Below, piece after piece: positions 5,106-19,585 of a stretch of DNA of 64,000 bases. The position numbers and the translations under genes are program-made. Below the pieces are notes generated by a model. That model had not been told where the DNA came from. It did no database searches and saw only the letters and a program-made list of their open reading frames with translations. Source of the DNA: Longimicrobiales bacterium (GTDB taxonomy: Bacteria; Gemmatimonadota; Gemmatimonadetes; Longimicrobiales; Gaopeijiaceae); assembly GCA_965204735.1 (NCBI GenBank), contig OZ242008.1:928001-992000 (forward strand), in the 5' to 3' direction. How positions within the stretch are numbered: the stretch's first letter is position 1; each line of letters starts with the position of its first letter.

Positions 5106-5107
5106 CT

Positions 5108-5132
5108 CTAATCTAACCTAACCTAACCTAAC
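5108..5132. repeat. Pentanucleotide microsatellite CTAAT-(CTAAC)4
   Basis: Read directly: ctaat ctaac ctaac ctaac ctaac, followed immediately by TTGACA. Confidence 0.9.
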
Positions 5133-5283
5133 TTGACAGCACGTTACGCTCCCTCCGTTGGCGGATGGACAGGTCGCAAGGCGCTCAGGCCCGCGTCCAA
5201 CGATTGCCGATCAGGTACTGCGAGGATCCGCGACTCCAGGACCTCCCAAACATCGCCGGCACGGGCCCTGCGACTCGCCCAGA

Positions 5284-8199
5284 TCAGTCATCATCGATCA
5301 GCCCGAGTTCCCGGAGCGGTTCCAGGACACCGTTTTCCAGCTTGGCCTTGTCGAGCGCACCTTTCGCCTCGACGTTGATGGAGATCCTGTCGGCCAAGGC
5401 CGCGAGGTTGGCGAGAGCGTTCCACGCGCCGTAGAGGGTGTCCCGATCTGCGCTGAACGAAAGAGCGACAGCGTCCGCATCCAGGGTGGCCGGCGTCGTC
5501 GAAGCACTTGGCTCGGGGCTGTCCGGCGTCTCGCGTACCAACCCGGTGCTGAGCTCGGGGCTCGACCAAAGTTCCGCTCCGTCAACAGCTTCGGGCTGAG
5601 CGGGAAGCGCGGCCGGGAGGATCAAGAACCCCGAATCGAGATCGATTTCGTCCTCGGCTACGCCGCGGTCGAAGGCGACTTGGCTCGTGTCGATTCGATA
5701 ACGGCCGTCCTCGCCAAGGGTCGGTCGGCCCGTGAAGTAGCCGAAGAAGCTGTTCTCGACGCCACGGGCGATGGCTCTGCGCACCACGTTGCCGGAAAGC
5801 AAGCGCGGGAAGCCAAGGAAGGAGAAGAACCCGGCAACCACCCGGGAGGTCGGAATTCCCGGCTCGGCGGATTCGACTTCTCCCAACCTGAACAGCTCGA
5901 CGATCTTCCCCGGTGCCACGTCTTCGAAGACTCTGCGGTGCACCATCGTCAGCAGCTCCATCATGCGATCGTGGATCCGGGCGCGCTTCTTCTCGTCGAG
6001 GGTCGTCTGGAGCGGCCGACCTCTCATGCCGACGGCGTCCAACGACAGCGAACCGCTGTCCGTCGTCGGCAGCCGGATTTCTTCGTACAACTTAAGCATC
6101 GCGGATTCGACCGCCGTTCTTTCGGTGGCGTCTCGTTCTCTGAGCTGACCCCTCTGCGCATCTGTAAGGTTGTGCTGCCGCCACCTCTGCAGGACCCGTT
6201 CGACGGCCGTCAGGTAGCGGACAGAGCGGCGAAGGCTCTCGACTTGGTCAGCCGACGGCACGGCGAGTCCAAGGCCATTGCGGAATTCGCGGGTACGGTT
6301 CCCGTGGTTCTCACAGAGATCTCTAGCTGTTTCTTTTTGCTCCCCCGTGGACTTGGCTGCGAACTCGAGCGGCAGATACGCGATCAGGAACCGAGATTCC
6401 TGGTCTGGTACGTCCGCCGATGTGGCCGGCCACACGATCGCCGAGCGCTGGCCCGCAAGCCTCTCTTCGATCAGCGTCTTTATCTTGGTCCTGATACGGC
6501 CCTCGTCCCGGCCCACCGCTTCGGCTTCCTGCTCGACCAGCAACGTGACGTTGGGGTCCCGCTTGAAGCAGTACCGAACGCCGTCGAAGTGCAGGTAGAG
6601 ACACTGTTCCTTGAGCTCCTTGAGACAGGCCTGAACGGTGGTGCTGTCGAGGTCTGGACCGACGCCGATGCTCAGCAGGTCGGGCTCGCTGATCCCGGGC
6701 GGCAACAGATCGCCGGCCGTGTCTTCCGAGCGGCGCAGGCCGCCGAAGGAATACATCAGCATGCATGTTGCCAGACGGGTAGCCGAGTGCTTGCCGGCCT
6801 CGGAGGTCACCTCCCGCGCGCGTCGGTCGTCGATCCGGCGGGTGCGAGCGTTTGTGCCGACGAAGTCATGCTCCAGACAAGCCTGAAAATCCTCCCGCTG
6901 TCCGACCTCTTTGAAGAAGGCGAGGCGTACATCCGCGTCGTGCACGGGAACGTCGCCCGGGCCGAGCAAGAGGCGCGAGCTGCCGGCACGGTGAGCAGCG
7001 CGCAGGCAGGAAGCGAGAAACCGCAGGGCACCGCGAGTTCTCTGGAAATCGGGAATGGCCGCCCAACGCTCCCGCATCACGTCGATCAGGGCCGGATGGA
7101 ATGGATAGGAAGACTGGATGCGATTCTGGAGCACCAAGCCGTCCTCTTCCGCCTGCTGCCGTTCCGACTCGCCGTGCGCTCGGGCGCGCCGCATCTGAGT
7201 GACTACGTCTCCGTAAGCCTTGGCGACGCTTCCCGCCACTTCCCGGTCCGGGGCTCCAGCCAGTAGCCGCCGCTGGATCACATTCAGGATCTCGTTGCCC
7301 TCGACGGGCTCCCGCCGCTGGTCCTTGCGCGCCGCGAGATGCTCCACTGTGCGGAGCAGGCCCGTGTACTCGAGGGATTCGCGGTTGCTCGACTGCAACG
7401 AGTATACGAGCACCGCGTTATCCACGTTGCCGACCGCGACCGTAAGGCGTTTCAGAAATGAAAGCGTCTCGTCCCGAAGGGTGGTCTGCTCGATGCGCAC
7501 CCCGCCAGCGCTAATGAGGTACTCCAGAACCTCGTCCAGGAGGATCAGGCTCGGGCCGTGCTTGAGCAGCTCGATGATCTGGTCTCCGCCTGGAGCAACT
7601 CGGCTATTGTCGTGCTCCCGGACGATCTCGTAGCCTTCCCGGCCCGCAAGTGCCCAAGCGATCCACCCCCAGACGGTCTTCGCGACGAAGCTCTCCTGCG
7701 GCACACGCTTTCCGACTCGAGCGTCAAAGAACTGCCCGTCGACGACTGCCACCCGTACTCCCTCCGGCCGCGGAAGTCCCGTTGCCTCCGGCAGTGCATC
7801 CAGGGCGGCCCTTGATCGGGCGCTGTGTAGCAGCGCGGCCAGCGTGTGCGACTTACCTCCGCCGAACGGTGTCAGCAACTTGAGCACGCGGTTGCCCTGG
7901 GAGCCTGCCAGCCGTCCCAGCACGTCCTCAAGCAGTGACTTCAGGCCGCCGGTAAGGTACGATGTCCCGAAGAAGCTGTCGGCGTCCCGGTAGACGACCG
8001 GAACACGTGGCAACGCCGAAGTCGGAACCTCGAGGTCCCTTCCTATCAGGTGGTCGGCCAGTGCCCCCAGGTCGAGTGCGAAGACGTCCTCCGAGAATTC
8101 TTCCGAGAGCACGTCAGGGTGCAGGTCTACGCATTGCAGCCAGGGTCGCCTAGCTACGTCCATGACTGTCGTTCTCCTGTGTTTAGGTTGGCTGGCCAT
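5284..8199 (-). CDS. DUF499 family AAA+ ATPase
   Basis: 971 aa. Walker A 'TPFGGGKSH', Walker B 'LILLDE', and DUF499 motifs 'FALDL', 'SYPFHPAL', 'FQRTRGALRFLA'. RBS AGGAGAGG upstream. Confidence 0.9.
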   Translation of the reverse strand: MASQPKHRRTTVMDVARRPWLQCVDLHPDVLSEEFSEDVFALDLGALADHLIGRDLEVPTSALPRVPVVYRDADSFFGTSYLTGGLKSLLEDVLGRLAGSQGNRVLKLLTPFGGGKSHTLAALLHSARSRAALDALPEATGLPRPEGVRVAVVDGQFFDARVGKRVPQESFVAKTVWGWIAWALAGREGYEIVREHDNSRVAPGGDQIIELLKHGPSLILLDEVLEYLISAGGVRIEQTTLRDETLSFLKRLTVAVGNVDNAVLVYSLQSSNRESLEYTGLLRTVEHLAARKDQRREPVEGNEILNVIQRRLLAGAPDREVAGSVAKAYGDVVTQMRRARAHGESERQQAEEDGLVLQNRIQSSYPFHPALIDVMRERWAAIPDFQRTRGALRFLASCLRAAHRAGSSRLLLGPGDVPVHDADVRLAFFKEVGQREDFQACLEHDFVGTNARTRRIDDRRAREVTSEAGKHSATRLATCMLMYSFGGLRRSEDTAGDLLPPGISEPDLLSIGVGPDLDSTTVQACLKELKEQCLYLHFDGVRYCFKRDPNVTLLVEQEAEAVGRDEGRIRTKIKTLIEERLAGQRSAIVWPATSADVPDQESRFLIAYLPLEFAAKSTGEQKETARDLCENHGNRTREFRNGLGLAVPSADQVESLRRSVRYLTAVERVLQRWRQHNLTDAQRGQLRERDATERTAVESAMLKLYEEIRLPTTDSGSLSLDAVGMRGRPLQTTLDEKKRARIHDRMMELLTMVHRRVFEDVAPGKIVELFRLGEVESAEPGIPTSRVVAGFFSFLGFPRLLSGNVVRRAIARGVENSFFGYFTGRPTLGEDGRYRIDTSQVAFDRGVAEDEIDLDSGFLILPAALPAQPEAVDGAELWSSPELSTGLVRETPDSPEPSASTTPATLDADAVALSFSADRDTLYGAWNALANLAALADRISINVEAKGALDKAKLENGVLEPLRELGLIDDD

Positions 8200-8215
8200 C
8201 GGTCCGACCCTCTCC

Positions 8216-11200
8216 TTACAGGAACCATGGCGTGTTCTCCAGCGACGGGTGCAGCTCGAACGGTTCCGACTGTCGCAAGAACGCCGCGGTCAAATAGGCG
8301 ATGTCCTTGGCGTACTTGAGTGTTATTGGCTCTCCACAAAACGCGTCGGTGGACGCCCAGTTCAGCTTCGTAAGGCTCAACACCTGAAGCGCCAGCACCC
8401 GCAAGTCCGGCCGACTGCCACGGTCGTTCGGTCTCTCAATCCATGCTGCTACCTCCAGTGGTCTTGCCGTCCCCATCATGCGACGAAACGGATTGTAACC
8501 TGTGGTGGACAGGTATAGCTTGTTGGTACCCACCTCAACGTAACTCCCTCGACGAAGGCTCCCATCCGTCTCCGGCCTATCATCGTAAAAGCGAACGTTG
8601 TGATGGGAATTGACCGAGACGAAAGCAAAGGTGCCCTCCGGGCGAACAGTTCGCGCCGATCGAAGAATCGCCTTCCGGTCGGCTCGTGCAAACTTCGCTG
8701 AATACTGGAACACCACGCGGGGAGTCGACGACAGTTGGGAATCTAGCCTCTTCAACACATCCTTGGCCAACTCGGCGAGGCGGAGATGTCGATCCTCAAA
8801 GTCAAAATAAGATGTGTTGCCCCGGTAAAACTCCCATCTTCCATATTGGTTGAACACGCTAGCAAAACCCATGATCCGACGGCCATCTCTGGACTGCGTG
8901 TAGGACAACCCCACAAAAAAATCCGCCTCTGGAATCGCATCCGGCAATACCCACGGCCGGACGCCGCACTTTGCACAAATGTTCAAGGCTAGATTCAGAT
9001 CTTTCCAATCTGGATTCTCAAGCGTTGGCGTGTCGACCATCTGACATGGTACGCCTCGTTCCAACAGCAGTCTCTTATTGACGTAGTACGGTGCCAGGTG
9101 GTCGTCTCGAGCATATCCCTCTTCGGGGGTATGGACAAGGAAAATGGATCTAGGATGAAGGTTGGCTCGACTCCTCTGTCGCTGATGCAAGAGACGTTCA
9201 AGTTCTGCATGAATATCATCAACATGGCTCACCGTAGCAATCCCCGAATACCAGAATTTTGTCGCAAACGTTCGTTCGGAGCCGCGATACTTGTACCGAC
9301 CTCCAATCAAACGTTCGATCAGGCCTTCCATTCCTTGACGGACTGCAGTCAGACAAACCGGTACAAGCTCAATCTCCTGTGGGTCATCGCCATAGGAGCC
9401 ATACTGTGTGATGCCGGCCCGGACATCCGGTGACAGCTGGCGCTGCCGAAACTCCACTTCCGGCTCTGGGAGTCGCCGAACGGTCAGTTCCTTTTCCGAA
9501 GGTCGCAGTCGTTCGGAAAGTCGAATCGGGTTGGTAGCGATATCGACGTCAAGATCGCAACATCGCAAAGGAAACAACTTGTCCGACAGATATTTCACGC
9601 TTGCCAGAATCTTTTGAGCCCTCTCCCTAGCGGAACCCGGTCTCGTAACCAAGCTATGCTCTCGAATCGCAGCGGCAAGATCGAACGACGGTTCCTCCTT
9701 GTGCAGCATAGACTTCAACATCTCCACAGTGCAAATGGGAATGACGTCACTGATAGGGATAGTTTCTACCGTGCCGGTGTCAAGGAATCGTACTTCCGCA
9801 AACTCATCGTTAAATCCAGACAGATGTCCCCTGCGCCACTGTCCATTGTTTGCTATGCAACGATGGCCATCAAGTCTGGCTCGTGCAAAATGCTGCTTCA
9901 CAACCGTGAGATTTCTTACGTTGAGAGCAACGCATCTGTAATCGATACACAAATAGAAGCGTTGACCATACTGCCGGACCTGAAATTCGTATGCCGGATA
10001 GAGTCGCACAATAGACCTCACCCCAACCGGTGTGCCGATCTCAGTGCGCCTCATGTGTGCAAGTATTCTGCTGAATCCATCTCGGTGTATGAACCATCCA
10101 TTTCCTTCTAACGCATCGCGAAGCGTTCGCACAAGCTGCCCATAACGTGATCCAAATACCTCATACCCTACCACGTTGTCCTGTTGCCGAAATCTCAACA
10201 GAAACAAATTGCTGAATTCCGTTGCGTTATCGTTGTTTGCCGCCGCTAGGAGCGCGGCTTCGCGCTCTTCCGCCCTGTTCTCAATCTGGATCAATGTCTC
10301 GTTCGAAAGGAGACGATATGAGGGAGCCGGCAACCCGAGGGTCTCCATCGCCGTAACCATCTGCTTCGTGCCCTCGCTAATGGCCTGCACATAGGCCACA
10401 CCACTCGGATCTCTCATTAGCTTCAGCCATTCTAGAAGCTTAGTATTCCTAGGCATCGAATCAAGTATGACGTCTGCCAACGAAAAACGCGGTGGTGGAT
10501 CAGTGTCTCGCTGAATTATCCGGCCTGGATTCTTCACCACGAATGCATCCGTGTACGCCTCGCATTCAATCGGCACCCCGGTTCGATAGTCCCTATGCGC
10601 TAAGGCGTTCACGAGTGCTTCGTCAATGACGGTATAAGGAAATTCGGGCTCTTCGACGAAGCCACCGGTTGGCCGTCGCTTTTGATAGCGCTTAAAGAAT
10701 GCGGACTCTCTGAAGAATGTCCTCGCCTCCCGGATCTGTTTCGTAACCGGACCTGTGAATTTTTGATCGAATGTCGGGAGACCACGTCTGGCATGGTCGT
10801 TGACCACCACTCCAAACCGCATTAGGCGAATGTGAGCTGCCGGAAGGACACGTTGCGGATTTGATCCAAAGAACAGAAGTCCGGCATATGTAAACCAATA
10901 GTCGTCATCGCGGCGAACCAATGCACCTGCCTCATAGAGCAGTCGTTCATCCGAGAAGCGTCTGGTTGCATCGGGGGAAAACACCTTGCGAAATTCTTTC
11001 AGAACGTCATCCGAAAGATCTGCAGGATCGTAGGGGCAGCAGAACGCGTTCTCGAAGTCGGTAAGGTTTTTTCTGTCCCGAAGCCGATCACGCATCGCCT
11101 GCGTGACCAGGACGTTTTGAGGTCCGCGTCGCTCCCAAGCCTTCGGCCTAGCCCGAAGCGTCTCGCAAATGGCATTGGTCGCATAGGGGGCAAATAACAG

Positions 11201-11701
11201 ACAAATAGTGTTGCTTTGGTCGGAATCATCGCGACATTCGTAAAGTCTAGCTTCGACGGCCTGATTGTGAAGGAGGCTCCCAATGTCAGTGAGGCTGTTT
11301 TTCTGACCTTCTGTCAGGTGGTTGACGCCTGCGACGTTGCCGTTGGACTCAATTCCGATCACCAGCAACCCACCTCTAACGTTGCTGTTGGCGAAGGCCG
11401 AAATGGTCTCGGTGATTCCGTCCCGGAGCTTCTTCAGTTGGTTTGTGAGCTCCCTGGGAGGGCTCCCCTTGCGGCCCGCAGCCTTACGATCGAAGTGCTG
11501 GCCCTCGAAATCGTCATCCGAGGACTGGGTCAAGAAGCCCCAGTGACTTGCGGGATCGTCGTAGACTGCCCGTGGGGAGGGTTCCATCAGCACTTCCTCT
11601 TCGTGGGACGCCCAAGACGGCAGAGCCGGAATCGCCCAAAGGTTGCGGGCTTGGCCGTGCGTTTCCACCACCGGCGGTTCGCCGCTCTCATCGGTCGTCA
11701 T
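8216..11701 (-). CDS. ago: Schlafen/AlbA_2 + HATPase_c_4 fused to a long prokaryotic Argonaute (MID-PIWI, predicted slicer-inactive)
   Basis: AlbA_2 motifs 'EGQHFDRK' and 'ISAFANSNVRGGLLVIGI'; HATPase_c_4 motifs 'EALVNALAHRDY', 'VKNPG', 'PRN'; L2 'LPEPEVEF..GITQYG'; MID 'YYVNK..GVPCQMV..NLALNICAKCGVRPWVL'; PIWI 'FFVGLSY', 'LTKLNW', 'PITLKYA'. Start is ATG 11701 (overlapping the methylase end) or 11587. Confidence 0.88.
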   Translation of the reverse strand: MTTDESGEPPVVETHGQARNLWAIPALPSWASHEEEVLMEPSPRAVYDDPASHWGFLTQSSDDDFEGQHFDRKAAGRKGSPPRELTNQLKKLRDGITETISAFANSNVRGGLLVIGIESNGNVAGVNHLTEGQKNSLTDIGSLLHNQAVEARLYECRDDSDQSNTICLLFAPYATNAICETLRARPKAWERRGPQNVLVTQAMRDRLRDRKNLTDFENAFCCPYDPADLSDDVLKEFRKVFSPDATRRFSDERLLYEAGALVRRDDDYWFTYAGLLFFGSNPQRVLPAAHIRLMRFGVVVNDHARRGLPTFDQKFTGPVTKQIREARTFFRESAFFKRYQKRRPTGGFVEEPEFPYTVIDEALVNALAHRDYRTGVPIECEAYTDAFVVKNPGRIIQRDTDPPPRFSLADVILDSMPRNTKLLEWLKLMRDPSGVAYVQAISEGTKQMVTAMETLGLPAPSYRLLSNETLIQIENRAEEREAALLAAANNDNATEFSNLFLLRFRQQDNVVGYEVFGSRYGQLVRTLRDALEGNGWFIHRDGFSRILAHMRRTEIGTPVGVRSIVRLYPAYEFQVRQYGQRFYLCIDYRCVALNVRNLTVVKQHFARARLDGHRCIANNGQWRRGHLSGFNDEFAEVRFLDTGTVETIPISDVIPICTVEMLKSMLHKEEPSFDLAAAIREHSLVTRPGSARERAQKILASVKYLSDKLFPLRCCDLDVDIATNPIRLSERLRPSEKELTVRRLPEPEVEFRQRQLSPDVRAGITQYGSYGDDPQEIELVPVCLTAVRQGMEGLIERLIGGRYKYRGSERTFATKFWYSGIATVSHVDDIHAELERLLHQRQRSRANLHPRSIFLVHTPEEGYARDDHLAPYYVNKRLLLERGVPCQMVDTPTLENPDWKDLNLALNICAKCGVRPWVLPDAIPEADFFVGLSYTQSRDGRRIMGFASVFNQYGRWEFYRGNTSYFDFEDRHLRLAELAKDVLKRLDSQLSSTPRVVFQYSAKFARADRKAILRSARTVRPEGTFAFVSVNSHHNVRFYDDRPETDGSLRRGSYVEVGTNKLYLSTTGYNPFRRMMGTARPLEVAAWIERPNDRGSRPDLRVLALQVLSLTKLNWASTDAFCGEPITLKYAKDIAYLTAAFLRQSEPFELHPSLENTPWFL

Positions 11702-14492
11702 CCTCCAGGGCGAGTTCCGTCTGTCCGAAGATAGGGCCTTCGCTCTCTCGATCATAAGCGGCCCCTTCAACGACACTTCGCCAATTGGCGTTCAGCTTGG
11801 AGAGGGCGCGCAACTCGGTGGTCGTGGTCGCGTCCTGCGCCTCGGGGCGTGAAAGCACTGGCGCACAGAGTGCCTGAGTGACCAACCGGAGCTGCTCCTG
11901 GCTCGGTCGCGCCGACTTCAGGAACTCCCGGACCTGGATCGGCCGGTGGTCGAGCAACCAGAGCAGCCGGTGGATGACGTCGATTAGCGGGGCCTGTCGG
12001 CCGTTCGTACTGATGCCCAGCCCGTCGTCGCTACCGCGCTCCTCGAAGGTCCGGACGCGGAATTTGCTCCTGGACTTCTCGACCAGGCACGGAGGGGGGC
12101 CGGAGAGCCCCTGTGGACCGTCGATCTCGATGCCCTGCGGATAGCAGAACACGTACGCGTCGCCGGCCTGGATGAGGGATTCACGATAGGTAAACCTCCA
12201 TAGGACGTAGAAGCGCGTCTCTGGGTCCACGGAGCCGACGGCTGCTCCACGCAAACCGAAGATCTCGTCAAGCATGACATCAAGTACGACGCCCTCGACG
12301 TCGCGGAGGTAGAGTTCGGCGGGCACGATTTCGCCGTTGGCGTACTCGACCTTGGCGAACCGCGTGTAGGCACGCAGGCCCGCGCCGACCGCAGCCATAA
12401 GGAGGTCTGCACCTCCAATTCCCTTGCCTCCCGCCCATAGGGTCGTCACGCGTTCGCGTGCGATGTGGAGAAGCTCCGGCTTTACCTGTGCCTCGTACCG
12501 CCCGGTCTCGGTCGTTTCGCGGCGGCGAGCGACGAAAAAGATGCTGTCGGAAAGCGCGGCGGCACCGAGCGCGTTGACCCTTCCTCGAGACTCCGTCTGC
12601 ACCGGCCATGCCTCGGTGACCGTGAGCCCCGCCCCAACTAGCGCACGAATCAATGTGGCCCATCCCTCCGTCGTTCGGTGGGCGTAGACGCAGACCAGTG
12701 GGGCACCCGGCTTCAGGACGCGACGGGCTTCTGCGAACGAGCGGCGCATCATGTCTTGATAGTGCATGTTCGCCTTCTTTGCGTCCCCGCCGTGCTCGCT
12801 CGGCTGTGCGACCGCCTCGCGCCGCTTGGGCGGCACAGGCAACGTGAAGTGCTCGGGGTAGAGATCACCGACGATGCGCTTCAGCCATACGTAGAAGAAC
12901 GCGGACAGATCCGCGTAGTATATGCTGCTATAGTACGGCGGGTCGGTGACCACCGCGTCGAAGGTCTCGTCGTTGTAGAACAGCTTTTCCGCGTTGCCGC
13001 GCGCAACAACCGATGGCTGGCCGACCTTGGCGAGCTCTCGAATACAGTACGCTTCCCGGTCCAGCGCGAAGGGGAGGCAGCCCTGGGTGTGCGCTAACCC
13101 ATTGATCTCTGAGAAATCGTAAATCATCTTCAGGGCTTGCCGATCACCAATAGCTCCTATCGTCCTCTGCACTCTGGGCTCCCACCGAGAGAACTTGTTG
13201 AATGTGACGACGAAACGGCCGAACGCCATCGCGAAATAGGTCGACAGCGCTCGTGCCCGGTCCTCGGCCATACCCTCCTTCAGCATTTCGGCGTGGGCCT
13301 GTCGAATGTTTTTGATCAGGGTCAACAGGACCAGTAGCTGTCGAGGCGTGAATAGTTCGCGATACGTATTCACTCCATAGTTAGGAAGTTGGTCACCAAG
13401 TTTCCCTTGAAGCATACCACCAGGAGGCTCACAACCGAGTTCCCCCTCAAGCTTCTCCAAACGCTGCTCTATCTCGTCCGCCGGCAACTCTACCGTGACA
13501 TCCGGGGGCAAGTATACTTTGGTTCGCCTTTTCCTCGATTTACCTTCTGGCGGCAACGAAACCACTACGGCAGCAAGCGATTCTTTCATCCTGTCGACTG
13601 TCGCCATTTCCTTGACGTGATCGGCAGGGGCAGGTGTATTGCATGCGACGCAGACCGCTTGTCCCGCGCCAGTCTGCGCCTCTTGTTGGGAGACTTCTCG
13701 GATGGACGCACCGGAAACGATGTCCCAGCAAAGTCGGTTGCCATCTTCGATTTGGGGAACAGCGGCAACGGCTCCGTTCTTCTTGCGTAGCCAAGCTTGG
13801 CGAACGAGCGGCACCGACGTGCCGCATCCCGGCCGACGACAGGGCACAGTGCGCGCCCAGATGCAAGCGATCAGGGTTGCTTCGCGCGACGGAGTGGGTG
13901 AATCTGATGTCCGGTTTCCGAAGAGGGTGATCTGGGAAGCGACCGCGTCCGATTCAGGTATCCGGACGTCTGGGTAAAGGTCGCCAACATCCTTCTTCAC
14001 GCGTTCGAGGACAACCCGACCCCAGTGTTCGAAGTCGTCGGCCAACTTCGGTCCGAACGTCTGTGGATACGCTAGCGTACATAGTTCGATCAGGTGGGCT
14101 ACCGGGTTGTAGTCGAGCGCGTGGCTCTCGCAACCGAGACGGGCGGCCTCGAGCGGAATCGCACCTCCGCCCGCAAATGGGTCCAGCACCTTCGGCGTCC
14201 GGCCACCGTGCGCCTCCAGGATGTGTCTGCGAGCCTTCTTGACGACTTCCGGATCCGGCTTGAACGCAGCGAGGTTGGCAACGAAAGACGCGGCTTCCCT
14301 ACGCTCGTCGTCCGATTCCGGCGCAGCGACTAGGGCGGCGTAGACCGCGGCGCGCGATGCGGTGATCGGACGGCGAGCGGGCCAGTAGTGGATCATCTCC
14401 ACGTATCGCCGGGGATGCAGCTTCTCGTGGGATGCGATGGCGTTGAGCGCGTCAAGAGGAAGGTAGTCCTCGATCAGTCGGCGGTCATCCAT
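11688..14492 (-). CDS. DUF1156 family adenine-specific DNA methyltransferase
   Basis: 'RLIEDYLPL', 'HYWPARRP', SAM-binding 'LDPFAGGGAIP', Zn-ribbon cysteines and catalytic 'TDPPYY'. ATG 14492 overlaps the helicase stop; 14504 is an alternative start. Confidence 0.92.
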   Translation of the reverse strand: MDDRRLIEDYLPLDALNAIASHEKLHPRRYVEMIHYWPARRPITASRAAVYAALVAAPESDDERREAASFVANLAAFKPDPEVVKKARRHILEAHGGRTPKVLDPFAGGGAIPLEAARLGCESHALDYNPVAHLIELCTLAYPQTFGPKLADDFEHWGRVVLERVKKDVGDLYPDVRIPESDAVASQITLFGNRTSDSPTPSREATLIACIWARTVPCRRPGCGTSVPLVRQAWLRKKNGAVAAVPQIEDGNRLCWDIVSGASIREVSQQEAQTGAGQAVCVACNTPAPADHVKEMATVDRMKESLAAVVVSLPPEGKSRKRRTKVYLPPDVTVELPADEIEQRLEKLEGELGCEPPGGMLQGKLGDQLPNYGVNTYRELFTPRQLLVLLTLIKNIRQAHAEMLKEGMAEDRARALSTYFAMAFGRFVVTFNKFSRWEPRVQRTIGAIGDRQALKMIYDFSEINGLAHTQGCLPFALDREAYCIRELAKVGQPSVVARGNAEKLFYNDETFDAVVTDPPYYSSIYYADLSAFFYVWLKRIVGDLYPEHFTLPVPPKRREAVAQPSEHGGDAKKANMHYQDMMRRSFAEARRVLKPGAPLVCVYAHRTTEGWATLIRALVGAGLTVTEAWPVQTESRGRVNALGAAALSDSIFFVARRRETTETGRYEAQVKPELLHIARERVTTLWAGGKGIGGADLLMAAVGAGLRAYTRFAKVEYANGEIVPAELYLRDVEGVVLDVMLDEIFGLRGAAVGSVDPETRFYVLWRFTYRESLIQAGDAYVFCYPQGIEIDGPQGLSGPPPCLVEKSRSKFRVRTFEERGSDDGLGISTNGRQAPLIDVIHRLLWLLDHRPIQVREFLKSARPSQEQLRLVTQALCAPVLSRPEAQDATTTTELRALSKLNANWRSVVEGAAYDRESEGPIFGQTELALEDDDR

Positions 14493-17400
14493 GATCCATG
14501 TCATCCGGTCTCCCGCAAACCTCTGCCTGATCCACCGTCTCCTGATCGAAAGCGGCCTGTTCCACAGCCCTTGCCGGGAGATCATAGTATCGTGCGGCCA
14601 CGACCTCCTTCTTGGCGTAGTCCAAGTGCTTGGCGGGGTTCTGGATCATCAGCGGAGTCGGGTCCGGGTTGTCCAACGGATCCCAGACGACATAAAGCCA
14701 GTAGGTGTCGGCGAGCTGTTGCGCCTTGTACCACTCGTTGGTGGTCAGCCGGACGGGCTGGCCGCGTTGTCGGCCCTTGACCTCGATGCGGCGCACACCG
14801 GTCACAGGGTCCCGGTAGCCCGTCTGTGGGTCCGGCGGCGCCAGGCTTCGAACGTCGAAGCCGATCTTCTGGTGCCCGACCCGCTCGCACTCGCGGCCCT
14901 GGGCCTCCTCATAGGCGACGACAACGTCCTCCGCGGCAACCTCGACCCGCTGCGTCAACGCCGGGTCGGGTTCCTCTCTGAATACGAGGGCGCGCTCCGT
15001 ATCCGTGTCGGGAGGCAGTACCAAGCAGCTCGCTATGTGCCGCACGGGACCGTGCCGGGCGATGCGAAGCCGCTCAATACCGGCCAGGCGCTCCTCCTGT
15101 GTGCGTTGCAGATCGGCAAGATCCTGTTCCGCACGCTGACGTGCCAGCGTTACTTCCGGCTCTTTTGGCTCCCGGGCCCGTAGCCCCATCACCCGATCCT
15201 GCGAGGCACGGGCACGAGCGGCGAAAGACTTCTCGAGATAGTCGCGCGCTACTTCCGCATAGTGGCCGCGTTCGGCCTGGGCGTCTCGCCGCCGCTGCAT
15301 CTGGATCGTCGCCTTGACATAGTCGCCGACGAGGCCTTGGTCGATCCCGGGCAAGGTCACGGACGGACTCGGATGGGCAGGCAGATCGATGAGCGCGTCC
15401 GGCGGCACTGTGCTGAAACGATCCGCAACGGCGATATCTTCGCCGCCCTCCTCCCGCACGGCCACCAGCTCGGAATGTATCGTCGTCGCCTCGCCCTTGG
15501 TGTTCTGGCCCTGTACTGGAATCTCGTAGAAATGGAGACGGTAGGGAGATTTCCCGTGCGGGTCCACGTACACGGCCGTCTGGCCCGCAAGCCGCTCGCC
15601 AAGGCTGTCTTGCAACCTCTCGTCCACGGCGGCGTAGAGCGGATGTCCGGGACCGACGAGTACGGCGTCAAGGTGCCGATCCTGCTCCAGGTGCTCCTTG
15701 TAGAAGGTCAGCTTGCGGTAGCTCGCCTCGGGCTTCCCATGGCGCCGGACCGCGGCAAGGCGCTCGGAGCGGAGCTCGGCGCGCACGTGCTCGATCCGCC
15801 AGAGTCCGTCCGCTCTTGGCTCTGTCCGCAGGCCCACCGCCCTGGCAGCGTTCAAGAAGTGGGATTCGACATAGCGAGGCATGAGCCGCCGCTCCTCCGT
15901 TTCCAAGTTTGCCCGTGCGAAGGACGAAAAATCTACGTGGGCGCGGGCCAATGCAATCCCAGTCGCGTCTTCGTACAGATCGAGCTGCTTCGGATCGATC
16001 CGCTCAATCGCATCGAGATAGTCGTCGAGGCGGCGCGGCTCATAGGCCACCTCCCGAAGCATTTCCGGCAGGTTGACCTTGTTCAGGGAGAGCACTTCGC
16101 CGACGACGTCGAACACTCGATCGCCGAGCGCATCCCGCATCCGGTTCAACTTGCTCAGCAGGCGCTCCAGAATACGTCCTTCGATGACTGGCTGACCGTC
16201 CTGCGACGAAGTGGCGACGAAATTGAAGGCGTACACATCGCGAGACTGCCCGATGCGGTGGATGCGGCCAAGTCGCTGTTCGAGACGGGTTGGGTTCCAA
16301 GGCAGATCGTAGTTGACCATCAGGTGACAGAACTGGAGGTTGATGCCCTCTCCGGCGGCCTCCGTCGCCACGCAGATCTGGCGGCTAGTTCGGAAATCTT
16401 CTTGAGCCTGCTTGCGCTCGTGCGGGTTCATCCCGCCGTGAATTTCGCATGTCGAATACCCCCAGGACTCGAGATGGCTCCTCAGGTGGTTCAGCGTGTC
16501 CCGGTGCTCGGTGAAGATAAGGAGCTTACCGCGTCCGTCCTTCAGTTCGTCGAATTCCGTTCGTTCCAGGCACTCGCGCAATGCGACGAGCTTGGAATCG
16601 AGGCCGCCTTCGCGCAATCGGCCTACGCTCGTCGCGAGGTCCCGTAGCGCCGCGACCTCGGCCCGTAGCTGACCCAAGGCGAGGGCCGCTGTAGTCTCGT
16701 CGATGAGACAATCGCGAGATGCGTCGTCGAGGTCGTCTTCGTCCTGTTCTACGTCGGCAACTTGACCTGATGCCTGCGCGAGTCGTCTCGCCCGCTGGGC
16801 AGGGGGCAAGTTGTCGAGTTCGTCAACCAATTCTCTTAGCCGTGTTCGACGACGAATCAGCGATTCGTGAATTGCGCGGGTAGAGCTGGCCAAGCGACGT
16901 TGAAATACCGTGCGCACGAGAGCGACGCTGTTCTTTCGCCTTCCGGTCGTTTGTGGAAGGAACTCATTGATGTATGCCGTTACCGCCTTGTAAACCGCGT
17001 ACTCTTGTTCGCTGAGCGCAAAGCTGACCGTGTGTACGTGGCGGTCCGCAAACAACCGACGCCCATGCAGGTCCTTGAGGTCTTCCTTGAGCCGTCGAAG
17101 CGACCACGGGCAATCTTGGCCGAGTTGTAGTACATCGCGTCGAACATGAGCGGCTTCTTCGCCTACGCGATGGGGTTCGGGGAACAGGTCCCGGTCGATA
17201 AGCCGGATGAAGTGTGCGAACCGGTCATCGTCACCGTGATGAGGCGTGGCTGTCAAGAGCAGCAGGTGGTCGCAATGTTCGGAGAGCCGCTCGGCGAGCT
17301 GGTAGCGCTTCGTGCGCTCAATCCCGTCCCCGCGACCGGTGGAGTACTTGGTACGAGCACTGCACTTGTGGGCTTCGTCGATGATGACGAGGTCCCAGTG

Positions 17401-18120
17401 CTGCCGCCACACGCGCTCCCGCACCTCGTCCCGCTTGGCGTAGTCGATGGAAGACACGATCTGCGTCTCTCGCTCCCATAGGTTTAGGAACTGCTGCTGG
17501 TCGTTCGCGGAGTGAACGACCTGGAACGTTTCATTGAAGAAGCGGAGTAGCTCGTCCTGCCACTGAATGGTCAACGGTGCCGGAACGAGGATCAGGCAAC
17601 GCTCGACGGCCTCTCGGAGCTTGAGTTCCTTGATGAGAAGGCCGGCCATGATCGTCTTCCCCGCGCCCGGATCGTCGGCGAGCAGGAAACGCAGGCGCGG
17701 CTGTGGTAGCATCCTACGGTAAACCGCGTCGATTTGATGAGGCAGAGTGCGGATGCCGGAAAGGCTGACCGCAAAGTGACGATCGAAGGTGTACGCCAAG
17801 CGGATACGAGCCGATTCGATCAAGAGCCGCATCTCCTCGGGATCGGCGGGTTGCGCCGCAGCGACTTCCCGTGGGTGATCACCCGACGCTACAGCAGCGG
17901 CGGCTTCCTCCGAAGAGATGATGGCCTCTTCAAGCGCTCCGTCGGGCAGGCGCACCCGGCATTCGTAGCCGGCGGAATCAGGTGCCGCAAGCGTTCTGAC
18001 GTCTTCGAGGACGACAGGTACATCGAAGTGCCCCGGTAGCGAGAGTCGTCGTCCGACCCATTCCGACAACTGGGCCTTCGTCTTCCCGTTCGTCTCGTTC
18101 TTGAGTGCCTGTAGCGTCAT
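14485..18120 (-). CDS. SNF2-family helicase with C-terminal DUF3883/NOV-like PD-(D/E)xK nuclease
   Basis: 'LLADDPGAGKT', 'IIDEAH', 'LTATPH', 'TEAAGEGINLQ', 'QRLGRIHRIGQ'; C-terminal 'GFDVRS...RIEVKGR...LTTNEW..YWLYVV'. Start is approximate. Confidence 0.92.
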   Translation of the reverse strand: MTLQALKNETNGKTKAQLSEWVGRRLSLPGHFDVPVVLEDVRTLAAPDSAGYECRVRLPDGALEEAIISSEEAAAAVASGDHPREVAAAQPADPEEMRLLIESARIRLAYTFDRHFAVSLSGIRTLPHQIDAVYRRMLPQPRLRFLLADDPGAGKTIMAGLLIKELKLREAVERCLILVPAPLTIQWQDELLRFFNETFQVVHSANDQQQFLNLWERETQIVSSIDYAKRDEVRERVWRQHWDLVIIDEAHKCSARTKYSTGRGDGIERTKRYQLAERLSEHCDHLLLLTATPHHGDDDRFAHFIRLIDRDLFPEPHRVGEEAAHVRRDVLQLGQDCPWSLRRLKEDLKDLHGRRLFADRHVHTVSFALSEQEYAVYKAVTAYINEFLPQTTGRRKNSVALVRTVFQRRLASSTRAIHESLIRRRTRLRELVDELDNLPPAQRARRLAQASGQVADVEQDEDDLDDASRDCLIDETTAALALGQLRAEVAALRDLATSVGRLREGGLDSKLVALRECLERTEFDELKDGRGKLLIFTEHRDTLNHLRSHLESWGYSTCEIHGGMNPHERKQAQEDFRTSRQICVATEAAGEGINLQFCHLMVNYDLPWNPTRLEQRLGRIHRIGQSRDVYAFNFVATSSQDGQPVIEGRILERLLSKLNRMRDALGDRVFDVVGEVLSLNKVNLPEMLREVAYEPRRLDDYLDAIERIDPKQLDLYEDATGIALARAHVDFSSFARANLETEERRLMPRYVESHFLNAARAVGLRTEPRADGLWRIEHVRAELRSERLAAVRRHGKPEASYRKLTFYKEHLEQDRHLDAVLVGPGHPLYAAVDERLQDSLGERLAGQTAVYVDPHGKSPYRLHFYEIPVQGQNTKGEATTIHSELVAVREEGGEDIAVADRFSTVPPDALIDLPAHPSPSVTLPGIDQGLVGDYVKATIQMQRRRDAQAERGHYAEVARDYLEKSFAARARASQDRVMGLRAREPKEPEVTLARQRAEQDLADLQRTQEERLAGIERLRIARHGPVRHIASCLVLPPDTDTERALVFREEPDPALTQRVEVAAEDVVVAYEEAQGRECERVGHQKIGFDVRSLAPPDPQTGYRDPVTGVRRIEVKGRQRGQPVRLTTNEWYKAQQLADTYWLYVVWDPLDNPDPTPLMIQNPAKHLDYAKKEVVAARYYDLPARAVEQAAFDQETVDQAEVCGRPDDMDHG

Positions 18121-18166
18121 TTGGGCGTGTGATTGGCCAGGAGACAATCCAAGACAGCACGTCAAG

Positions 18167-18195
18167 ATACTACTAGGGAACACGCCGGATGTCCA
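18167..18195 (-). promoter_or_regulatory. Putative sigma70 promoter for the defence operon
   Basis: Minus strand reads TGGACA-N17-TAGTAT, about 45 nt upstream of ATG 18120. Confidence 0.55.
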
Positions 18196-18285
18196 CCGGG
18201 GCCTGGAGAGAGCGGCCTACCACGGCAGAAACGGTCATGTTTGGTCGCATATCCCTATATGATCCAGGGTCCTGAACGGGCTGCT

Positions 18286-18419
18286 GAGGTAGGCGACGGC
18301 GACGAAGTTCTCGGTGGACGCGGTACCGCGGGCCCGGAGTTTCGCCGCCTAGACCAGCGAGTTCATGGCCTCCAGTATCCCGTTTCTGATCCGCGAGCGG
18401 AACCACGCTACGCGATGCC
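18286..18419 (-). mobile_element. Degenerate ISL3-family transposase C-terminal remnant
   Basis: Minus-strand translation 'WFRSRIRNGILEAMNSLV*AAKLRARGTASTENFVAVAYL' matches the ISL3 C-terminal signature (SNGxxExxNxxxxxxKxxARGYR). It has an internal TAG and an eroded GYR motif. Confidence 0.75.
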
Positions 18420-18490
18420 CCTCGTCCGGCCGGTCCCCCACAGCCCCGTCCGCCCCGGGCGGAACCCGGAGACCCGGACGCAGGACCGCC

Positions 18491-19585
18491 TCAGACGAAG
18501 CGGTAGAGCCTTACGTCCAGGGACCGCGTCGCCCGTTCGGCGTCCCGCCACTGGACCATGATCGGGCTCTGGTAGGTGCCGCTGGGGATCACGCTGGTTC
18601 CGTCGCCGGCGAGGTCGAGCACAGGGAGGCTGATCTGCCGCTTCATGCGCAGGAAGTGGGAGACGGGGACCGCCAGCGCCCGATTCACGATCCGCTCCAC
18701 GACCGACCTGCGCACGCCCATTCGATCCAGCAGCGTGTTGAGGACCTGCACGGCGTCGAACTGGGCGTAGTTGAGGGTCTTGGCGGGAATGGCCCGGGGG
18801 TCCCGCAAGGCGTTTCGGCCTCGCTCGGCCATGAACCGCAGGGGATCCGCCAGCACTTCCCGCAGGTCGTGCGTCATGAGCAGCGTTTCGTACTCGTTGA
18901 CCGTCAAGCCGGCGTTCCGCTCGTCGGGCGCGAGGGAGACGTCGAGTCGGCCGAAGGACACTCCGTGAGCTTGCGCAAGCTTCCGCAGCTCTTCCATGAC
19001 CCCGAGGTTCGGGTCCCGCAGGTTGCATGCGTCGAGGGCGTGGGACGGCGCCTCCACGTCCAGGGTCAGGCGGGCGACTTCGGTCTCGCCGCCGTAGGCC
19101 ACCACCGTGGTGCGCCGGCGTCTCGTTCCCGCGTCGTGGACCCCGTCGAGCTCCACGAACCACACCGGGTCGTCCCGCTGCTCGTAGGACACGCAGTTCT
19201 TCAGCCCCGCGCCGATGAAGGTGAGGTGCGAGTCGGCGTTCTTGGGCTCGTTGGCCCGCTGCTCCTCCGACAACTCGGTGCGCAGGTGAAGCTTGTCGTG
19301 GACGTAGCCGGCGTCCGGCGGAAAGAGCTTGCGGAAGACCTGGAGGAACTCCTGCACGTTCTCGTCGTCGTGCTCCAGCCTCTCGGCGATCCGCTGGTCC
19401 AGGTAGCCCGCCGTCGTGTGGTCGGAGACGTAGAGCGCCTTGGGGAACTGGGTGAAGCTGCTCCCGAACTCCTTGGCCAGGCTTCCCCGCACGTCGATCA
19501 GCTCGATCCGCGACGAAGGCTTGATTCGCAGGACGGCCTGGAACGGACCGTTGCCCGACGAGCTGCGGTGCTCCAGCTCAATCAC
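18491..19585 (-). CDS. YjbQ/UPF0047-like protein, apparently two tandem domains
   Basis: 'HTTAG', 'YVHD', 'NADSHL', 'FVELDG' in the first half; 'NAGLTVNE' and 'GTYQS' in the second half. GTG start. Confidence 0.6.
   Translation of the reverse strand: MIELEHRSSSGNGPFQAVLRIKPSSRIELIDVRGSLAKEFGSSFTQFPKALYVSDHTTAGYLDQRIAERLEHDDENVQEFLQVFRKLFPPDAGYVHDKLHLRTELSEEQRANEPKNADSHLTFIGAGLKNCVSYEQRDDPVWFVELDGVHDAGTRRRRTTVVAYGGETEVARLTLDVEAPSHALDACNLRDPNLGVMEELRKLAQAHGVSFGRLDVSLAPDERNAGLTVNEYETLLMTHDLREVLADPLRFMAERGRNALRDPRAIPAKTLNYAQFDAVQVLNTLLDRMGVRRSVVERIVNRALAVPVSHFLRMKRQISLPVLDLAGDGTSVIPSGTYQSPIMVQWRDAERATRSLDVRLYRFV

Follow-up and report, generated by a model that had tools for sequence, protein, structure and literature searches.

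A block of defence genes lies within the stretch of DNA analysed here, a 64,000-nt window from a Longimicrobiales bacterium (GenBank assembly GCA_965204735.1, contig OZ242008.1, positions 928,001 to 992,000 of the forward strand; coordinates below are those of the window). It consists of an Hma operon, hmaA-hmaB-hmaC, with a gene for a Schlafen-type prokaryotic Argonaute (SLFN-pAgo) lodged between hmaB and hmaC. The cluster is real and intact, and it is one known defence gene inserted in another known system, not a new hybrid. It is likely, in our judgement, that the SLFN-pAgo is autonomous and exchangeable cargo of the hmaB-hmaC slot, and that the operon expresses two independent layers of defence from one promoter. 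An earlier note on this DNA, made from the letters alone, had proposed a new hybrid system; this proposal is not upheld, since the flanking genes form the named Hma system, which has a published insertion hotspot, and RzAgo, the type member of the SLFN-pAgo family, works as a single gene, for which its authors saw no conserved partner.

The flanking genes encode an Hma system

Four co-oriented open reading frames (ORFs) are listed on the minus strand (14485-18183, 11688-14585, 8216-11776 and 5284-8199), and the order read in the earlier note, helicase-nuclease, methylase, pAgo and DUF499 protein, is confirmed by the ORF lists, Pfam and PADLOC. Both pAgo junctions are spanned by single contigs in runs X1 (6625-14766, 0 differences), X2 (6581-12147, 0 differences) and X4 (7464-11969, 16 differences), which come from three studies and one of which is possibly the source of the window itself; the layout is therefore no assembly chimera.

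The three genes around the pAgo, which the note had described as restriction-like, are by their sequence matches HmaA, HmaB and HmaC, in A-B-C order, of an Hma (Type-1 BREX-related) system. These were the best PADLOC matches (E=5e-189, 9e-108 and 1e-95, respectively), and Pfam placed SNF2, Helicase_C and NOV_C domains in HmaA (NOV_C, PF13020, at residues 1081-1174, above the cut-off), DUF1156 (PF06634, above the cut-off) and N6_N4_Mtase in HmaB, and DUF499 in HmaC. HmaA carries a Walker A motif at residue 149, a DEAH box at 248 and motif VI at 615, and its predicted nuclease residues D1089, E1113, K1115 and E1129 (D...ExK...E) were set by motif, not by alignment, against those in PMC11232893. 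HmaB has an S-adenosylmethionine-binding motif at 104 and DPPY at 517, its modification probably being N6-methyladenine (m6A), and HmaC has Walker A and Walker B motifs at 98 and 206. Profile scans detected no N-terminal HEPN domain on HmaC, and Pfam gave no match to a phospholipase D (PLD) nuclease in HmaA and none to DUF3780 among the proteins scanned. The lack of DUF3780, also remarked on in the note, agrees with its place in Type-2 systems, and the ORF lists leave no room for a small gene of that type between the four ORFs.

The gene boundaries described earlier are borne out in part. hmaA and hmaB overlap by 8 nt, given an hmaB start at 14492, and a 16-nt gap with a ribosome-binding site (RBS) precedes the ATG at 8199, though 8163, the position at which homologues begin, is the more likely start of hmaC (read from 8199, it would have 971 residues). 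The single sigma70-like promoter proposed upstream is present as one site matching the consensus (18195-18167; mean in shuffled sequence, 0.0), and the four genes probably share transcription from it. No terminator was recognised by pattern 3' of hmaC.

The embedded gene encodes an intact SLFN-pAgo

The PADLOC model PDLC02394 (pAgo) covers 1120 of 1121 positions with 1547 bits, the N-terminus matches SLFN_AlbA_2 in Pfam (PF04326, above the cut-off), and a match to HATPase_c_4 (PF13749, E=1.7e-4) falls under the curated cut-off. At least 501 homologues of the protein were found among 8000 candidates scored. Its start is most likely at 11587 and not at 11701: in alignment A1 (29 sequences) the majority of the 28 homologues begin at the matching position, and the extra residues 1-38 of the longer form have a predicted local distance difference test score (pLDDT) of about 30. 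The overlap of hmaB and pAgo is therefore no conserved coupling, in disagreement with the note, and a short relic ORF (11691-11587) bridges the two genes instead. The structure model, made of the near-identical variant P0001, has a mean pLDDT of 63 and a predicted template modelling score of 0.39, good for fold class only, and its best Foldseek matches are RsAgo structures.

With numbering from 11587, the predicted Schlafen nuclease motif is E28-x4-D33-x-K35, followed by a SAFAN box at 63-67, a GHKL pair E323/N327 and a MID pocket Y834/K838/Q849/K873. All 51 full-length sequences compared have these residues unchanged, apart from D33 (D in 44 sequences, E in the other 7) and two positions of the SAFAN box, whose S63, F65 and N67 are invariant in all 51. 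In an alignment with Aquifex Ago the MID residues Y/K/Q/K are aligned, GID is replaced by GLS and HRDG by QYSA, and the first two acidic positions of the PIWI domain are serine; the domain is thus read as lacking the acidic tetrad, from the two positions directly checked.

The gene is under purifying selection and its motifs are intact. Its ratio of nonsynonymous to synonymous substitution (dN/dS) is 0.10-0.16 against the embedded copies of two gammaproteobacterial genomes, G062 and G063. An inert or decaying passenger, to which the amino acid changes among the differences listed for the X4 strain (5 of the 12 listed) might be thought to point, is hardly probable at all in the face of this ratio, the open frame, the conservation of key residues and the RBS at the conserved start. 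The GC content of the gene is well below that of the hma genes (62-64%) and of the genome (69.3%), and a similar gap of 6-11 points between pAgo and hma genes is found in G062 and G063.

The association of pAgo with Hma is sporadic

Close Hma operons were collected by HmaC searches (identity at least 68%), with two dropped, G603, where the contig ends, and G002, which has the 3' part of hmaC only, at another site. Among the 11 with a whole junction, pAgo occupies the hmaB/hmaC junction in three (the window, G062 and G063), and the junction is empty, with hmaB abutting hmaC, in eight (G529, G590, G622, G624, G644, G646, G668 and G669). Nothing occupies the hmaA-hmaB slot of the window; in 6 of these 11 operons that slot contains other DNA, 2.8-15 kb long. 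In G062, HmaA is 97.8% identical to that of G622, HmaB is nearest to that of G624 (87%) and HmaC to that of G622 (87.5%), and the disagreeing trees of hmaA, hmaB and hmaC point to frequent recombination among Hma alleles.

Seen from the pAgo, the picture is similarly patchy. All 13 homologue loci from genome contigs, with the 80 best of the 208 metagenomic ones, made up 93 loci and 73 groups at 95% identity, of which 42 had at least 1 kb on both sides (27 had at least 3 kb) and 31 were excluded for short flanks; neighbours were typed by tblastn with the Hma proteins of the window and of other Hma-like loci of its genome, and by profile scans of 57 neighbours chosen from the 372 called. The hmaB/pAgo/hmaC arrangement was found in 2 of the 42 dereplicated loci (2 of the 27 with longer flanks), namely L002 and L003, which correspond to G062 and G063. 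An hma gene is near the pAgo in three others, on the 3' side of hmaC in L046 and on the opposite strand in L058 and L066. The pAgo also lies beside or in Type I restriction-modification (RM) systems (L009-L012, L050), Type III RM systems (L032, L038, L048, L081, L106), a Type IIG system (L005), BREX (L084, L105) and DISARM (L004, L110), and beside a MANTIS-like helicase (L085), and for 20 of the 42 loci no neighbour of the RM, BREX, DISARM or Hma type was detected within 6 kb.

An obligate four-gene hybrid is rejected on these counts, and the conserved co-occurrence of pAgo with DUF1156, DUF499 and SNF2 genes that the earlier note had envisaged reduces to 2 of 42 pAgo loci and 3 of 11 close Hma loci, apparently of one origin. 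On the genomic side, the 2 of 42 loci and the eight empty junctions amount to what that note itself had named as evidence against its proposal, homologues in varied contexts without enrichment beside DUF1156 and DUF499 genes.

Further searches gave few close relatives. The pAgo of L001 is 73% identical to that of the window and 81% to that of G062 (window and G062 share 76%), and L001 has no Hma within 9 kb and no junction relics. Among 401 genomes of the phylum and 251 of the family, with two candidates scored per genome, the window's own copy was the only close pAgo. A pAgo is present in 4 of 53 genomes of the family of G062, one of them G623, whose copy is 46% identical and has no Hma match within 20 kb, and in 1 of 26 and 1 of 78 genomes around G061. 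None was found in viral contigs, and one plasmid record bears a homologue at 52%.

Several other neighbourhoods of SLFN-pAgo homologues were observed. In one that recurs, SLFN-pAgo is accompanied by Type III res-mod genes and by a UvrD-like helicase some 700 residues long; this set is complete in L106, has the order mod-pAgo-UvrD in L032, and is partial in L038, L039 and L083. The SLFN-pAgo gene lies immediately 5' of BREX pglZ in L084 (12410-14926), 3' of a PLD-type helicase in L085 (1-1533) and immediately 3' of DISARM drmABC in L004 (2754-8799), and is followed by a predicted pPIWI-associating nuclease (PF18165) in L042 (11153-12340).

Two probable layers of defence

RzAgo combines RNA-guided DNA sensing with tRNA cleavage: it takes RNA guides and single-stranded DNA (ssDNA) targets, forms an inactive filament upon guide binding and assembles ATP-driven tetramers, and the single gene protected a heterologous host, the authors seeing no conserved partner (Kuzmenko 2026, bioRxiv 10.64898/2026.05.29.728809). 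HmaA, for its part, defends through a NOV_C nickase that nicks supercoiled DNA (Liu 2024, PMC11232893). By analogy with these and other relatives, in the first layer m6A would be placed on self DNA by HmaB, an enzyme that the HmaC ATPase probably loads in the manner of MANTIS, and HmaA would translocate on invader DNA and nick it. In the second layer, as demonstrated for RzAgo, the pAgo would load short RNA guides and remain in an inactive filament until pairing with complementary ssDNA breaks the filament, whereupon ATP-driven tetramers would form the Schlafen cleft, cut tRNA and abort infection. This second layer is attributed to the window because the motifs are conserved, and the guide-triggered, abortive Schlafen activity imagined in the earlier note thus agrees with what RzAgo does.

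Three observations weigh against independent layers and exchangeable cargo. The window, G062 and G063, from unrelated hosts, are about as alike in pAgo (76-86% identity) as in HmaB and HmaC (76-80%), which fits linkage and also selection for the pair. A gene of the RM, BREX, DISARM or Hma type lies within 6 kb in 22 of the 42 pAgo loci versus 12 of 60 random windows of the window's own genome, a contrast that is inflated because the reference set was drawn from those loci. Also, the D-to-E spacing is 282 in RzAgo and 290 in the window pAgo, and details of the mechanism may differ.

A rival reading is a coupling by substrate supply, in which nicking and unwinding of unmethylated invader DNA by HmaA exposes ssDNA for the RNA-loaded pAgo and the two systems act in synergy. 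The ssDNA targets of RzAgo, the nicking of supercoiled DNA by the HmaA nuclease domain, the frequent proximity of RM, BREX and DISARM helicase-nucleases to homologues (the same 22 of 42) and the recurrence of the Hma-pAgo pair in three genomes are all compatible with such a coupling, which we nevertheless regard as unlikely: RzAgo alone protected its host without native neighbours, 40 of the 42 loci are not embedded in Hma and nearly half had no such neighbour detected, pAgo is missing from most of the close Hma operons, and the DNA products of HmaA cannot yield RNA guides. The earlier note had the helicase-nuclease supplying guides or targets to the Argonaute. Since RzAgo uses RNA guides, the supply of guides is unlikely, and the supply of targets survives only as this improbable coupling.

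A guard arrangement, in which the Hma complex holds the SLFN-pAgo off and the latter fires once a phage protein inhibits Hma, would have a precedent in the tRNA nuclease PrrC, which sits within the EcoprrI RM operon (PMC12707154). It would also suit the position of pAgo directly 5' of an hmaC whose product is without the N-terminal HEPN domain found, as a backup RNase, on many DUF499 ATPases of Type-1 systems (bioRxiv 10.1101/2025.10.09.681413). We consider it very improbable, as RzAgo has an off-switch (the guide-induced filament) and a trigger (target DNA) of its own, no extra domain is found in the coding region of the three embedded copies, and PrrC is almost always embedded (bioRxiv 10.1101/2024.01.29.577857), whereas the SLFN-pAgo family is mostly not embedded in Hma.

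With the SLFN-pAgo as autonomous cargo, the window operon adds one cargo type to a known hotspot and is a compact natural construct in which to ask whether a restriction-like helicase-nickase next door benefits an abortive system guided by nucleic acid. Of greater use, as a by-product, are the alleles of one junction in empty, repeat-flanked and eroded form, which together make one route of insertion and loss testable.

Junction repeats and the history of the cassette

In both G062 and G063, hmaB is followed by some 150 bp of the hmaC start, then by pAgo, by some 105-130 bp of the hmaB end, and by hmaC. The hmaB-end/hmaC-start junction forms a direct repeat, 245 bp long (89% identity) in G062 and 266 bp long (92%) in G063. 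The middles of the repeat copies are near-identical within each genome (59/59 and 58/60) and divergent between the two genomes (42-43/60). At its cassette-side end, the hmaC relic matches the hmaC of the other lineage at 46/56 versus 42/58 for its own in G062, and at 43/58 versus 36/56 in G063, a small difference that suggests exchange between alleles. G624, although empty, is 94% identical to G063 over 3116 bp comprising the junction and hmaC.

No self-repeat was found in the window. At its start the relic ORF agrees with the 5' end of G062 hmaC at 19 of 24 nt, the sole such 24-mer match on both strands of the window, and from this sequence likeness we infer that the ORF is the eroded left copy of a duplicated hmaB/hmaC junction, which might serve as a translational relay coupling hmaB and pAgo. 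The spacer before hmaC, through the 8 nt that it has in common with the hmaB end, is a possible, weak candidate for the eroded right copy. A contig of run X2 that joins 8124 to 11940 and has 43 letters on its short side (at a likeness threshold of 88) was not counted as an excised allele, as it perhaps stems from the Hma of another organism.

These sequences suggest that the cassette pops in and out by homologous recombination. The pAgo would have arrived a single time, in the allele ancestral to those of the window, G062 and G063, together with a junction duplication of about 250 bp, and recombination across the repeats could add or remove it, leaving a clean junction; with its repeats eroded, the cassette of the window is probably locked in. 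The same pattern would arise from a single crossover with a circle of junction plus pAgo or from tandem duplication of the island followed by deletions, and gain in G063 cannot be told apart from loss in G624.

The generality of such duplications was assessed by counting duplicated pieces of a flanking hma gene in occupied slots against control gene/slot pairs of the window's own genome, a comparison limited by kinship among the loci, by gene extents set by hand and by controls from one genome. Duplicated pieces were present in 10 of 40 occupied slots versus 35 of 250 controls (Fisher p=0.10). Restricting the count to gene ends, a stricter criterion adopted after the fact, gave 8 of 80 sides versus 12 of 520 (p=0.002), which fell to 4 of 76 (p=0.13) without the two pAgo slots and to 6 of 78 (p=0.02) with the pAgo origin counted once. 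Junction duplication as a general rule of Hma cargo is not established, the strict test losing significance without the pAgo slots.

Duplicated hma pieces were also observed with cargo lying between hmaA and hmaB, being either hmaA 3' ends (442 bp at 90% and 241 bp at 78%) or hmaB 5' pieces (164, 86 and 324 bp), among G624 (L122 and L115), G646 (L124 and L117), G063 (L120) and L151.

As a tentative proposal, which we think more doubtful than probable, Hma gene junctions may be landing pads that need no recombinase, where cassettes carrying a junction copy enter and leave by a single homologous crossover and become fixed as the repeats erode. If so, the crossover would spare both core genes and their translational coupling, cassettes with a copy of the hmaA end would belong here besides those with the hmaB-end/hmaC-start junction, and the pAgo cassette would have been caught empty (G624), repeat-flanked (G062, G063) and locked (the window); such a route of embedding for defence systems would be general and open to test.

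The defence block and its surroundings

The block (Table 1) is missing as a whole from the same site in all three congeners compared (G001, G002 and G003), where its flanking genes are only 16-58 bp apart (3/3), and its GC content falls to 52-65%, below the genome value given above. No integrase or other long ORF was seen inside it in the ORF lists, no target-site duplication was seen for it, and the window has no tRNA site.

Table 1. Features of the defence block (window coordinates) and further DUF499/DUF1156 loci of the same genome (G000 coordinates).
Feature	Coordinates	Strand	Remarks
Defence block, horizontally acquired	5106..18489	.	Between short-chain dehydrogenase/reductase (SDR) gene and UPF0047-like gene
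hmaC, DUF499 AAA+ ATPase, 959 aa	5284..8163	-	Pfam, PADLOC
Spacer with RBS	8197..8215	-	8-nt motif GACCGATG common to hmaB end (11696-11689)
SLFN-pAgo, 1123 aa	8216..11587	-	Schlafen/AlbA_2, GHKL ATPase, PAZ region, MID, PIWI; GC 53.5%, GC at third codon positions (GC3) 58%
Relic ORF, 34 codons	11587..11691	-	ATGA overlap with hmaB stop; TGATG overlap onto pAgo start
hmaB, DUF1156 amino-methyltransferase, 934 aa	11688..14492	-	Pfam, PADLOC
hmaA, SNF2 helicase with C-terminal NOV_C PD-(D/E)xK nuclease, 1211 aa	14485..18120	-	Pfam, PADLOC
Sigma70-like promoter candidate	18167..18195	-	9/12 consensus, 17-nt spacer; consensus match only
DUF499/DUF1156 locus	G000:C1:232000-248500		
DUF499/DUF1156 locus	G000:C1:647000-677200		
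DUF499/DUF1156 locus	G000:C1:1789400-1811100		
DUF499/DUF1156 locus	G000:C1:3004000-3028400		

At one edge of the block (5112-5133) a 5-nt unit (minus-strand TTAGG) is repeated 3-4 times in tandem, an array not observed at the empty sites, and at the opposite edge (18286-18480) a sequence of 110-135 bp, possibly the end of an insertion sequence, that has at least 5 copies in G003 and G008 and occurs weakly elsewhere in the window's own genome. The adjoining host gene (18491-19585, 364 residues) has a weak UPF0047 match (E=0.003) and is kept at 80-87% DNA identity in the three congeners. At a different chromosomal site of G002, of the same genus, an hmaC 3' fragment with 130 bp of downstream sequence is retained at 92% identity (G002:C1:1239108-1240266; L029:17114-18267), which indicates that this type of island moved and decayed within the genus. 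All four of the further DUF499/DUF1156 loci in the window's own genome have cargo between core genes; in the one at 3004000-3028400, the 3' end of the DUF499 gene is repeated before later cargo blocks (225 bp at 96% and 167 bp at 95%) and 2.4 kb of the methylase is duplicated.

Comparison with known systems

According to the available texts, Hma was named by Payne 2021 (PMC8565338) and is now classed as a Type-1 DUF499-centred BREX-related system, a type for which an N-terminal TUDOR domain on the helicase and a phylogenetic clade of DUF499 are further defining features, DUF3780 being assigned to Type-2 (10.1101/2025.10.09.681413). Its operon is an insertion hotspot: about 66.5% carry insertions in one study (PMC11232893), and in another 931 of 1485 systems (62.7%) hold embedded genes, 22.8% of which encode known defences and 96.7% of which are oriented as the flanking system, the significance of embedding being left open (Payne 2024, 10.1101/2024.01.29.577857). 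The window operon resembles these in its helicase-nuclease, DUF1156 methylase and DUF499 ATPase, in A-B-C order and without DUF3780, and in having a co-oriented known defence gene among the core genes. It differs in the nature of the cargo, as the main texts, as far as available, name no Argonaute; 'argonaute' and 'piwi' have no occurrence in the available main text of 10.1101/2025.10.09.681413, where Schlafen-kinase-wHTH proteins of at least 1017 taxa are listed as backup effectors. The literature searched gave no account of a pAgo within Hma, though supplementary tables might list one. Junction duplication around cargo has no mention in the available Hma texts, and no paper on junction duplication or recombination at defence hotspots was found in a search that left most subscription papers and bioRxiv supplements outside.

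The Schlafen-pAgo fusion was first counted in bioRxiv 10.1101/366930. In common with the RzAgo family, the window protein has Schlafen, GHKL, PAZ, MID and PIWI regions in one chain, with a pAgo core of the long-B type, a length within the range of 1071-1187 residues (10.64898/2026.05.29.728809), the E(x)4(D/E)xK motif and SAFAN box, no PIWI tetrad, and a location among RM-like genes. Its GHKL residues E323/N327 were matched to RzAgo E314/N318 by motif and spacing, not by an alignment to RzAgo; the mapping of a residue to RzAgo D72 failed, as the spacing differs. The window pAgo differs from the family in sitting in Hma, 'hma' and 'DUF' occurring 0 times in the main text of 10.64898/2026.05.29.728809. 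The Poribacteria SLFN-pAgo (Fig. 1f of that preprint; L009-L011) is likewise placed between core genes of a methylation-based operon, but that operon is of the Type I RM kind (hsdMSR) and not Hma.

The best mechanistic model for the flanking genes is MANTIS / Gao_RL (Type-2 BREX-related), likewise composed of a DUF499 ATPase, an adenine methylase and a helicase-nuclease and known for ATPase-dependent hemimethylation (bioRxiv 10.64898/2026.09.23.753747, in the text available). MANTIS has a small MtsB and an N-terminal PLD nuclease, whereas the nuclease of the window is a C-terminal NOV_C, and NCBIfam models of the MANTIS type score far below the cut-off on the window proteins. Type-2 or MANTIS membership was rejected on the lack of a DUF3780-type gene and of a PLD match in HmaA.

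DdmE is a pAgo that recruits the helicase-nuclease DdmD. The window is like DdmDE in that a pAgo adjoins an SF2 helicase-nuclease; DdmDE, however, is an obligate pair, whereas the window pAgo has its own effector and its pairing with the helicase-nuclease is facultative.

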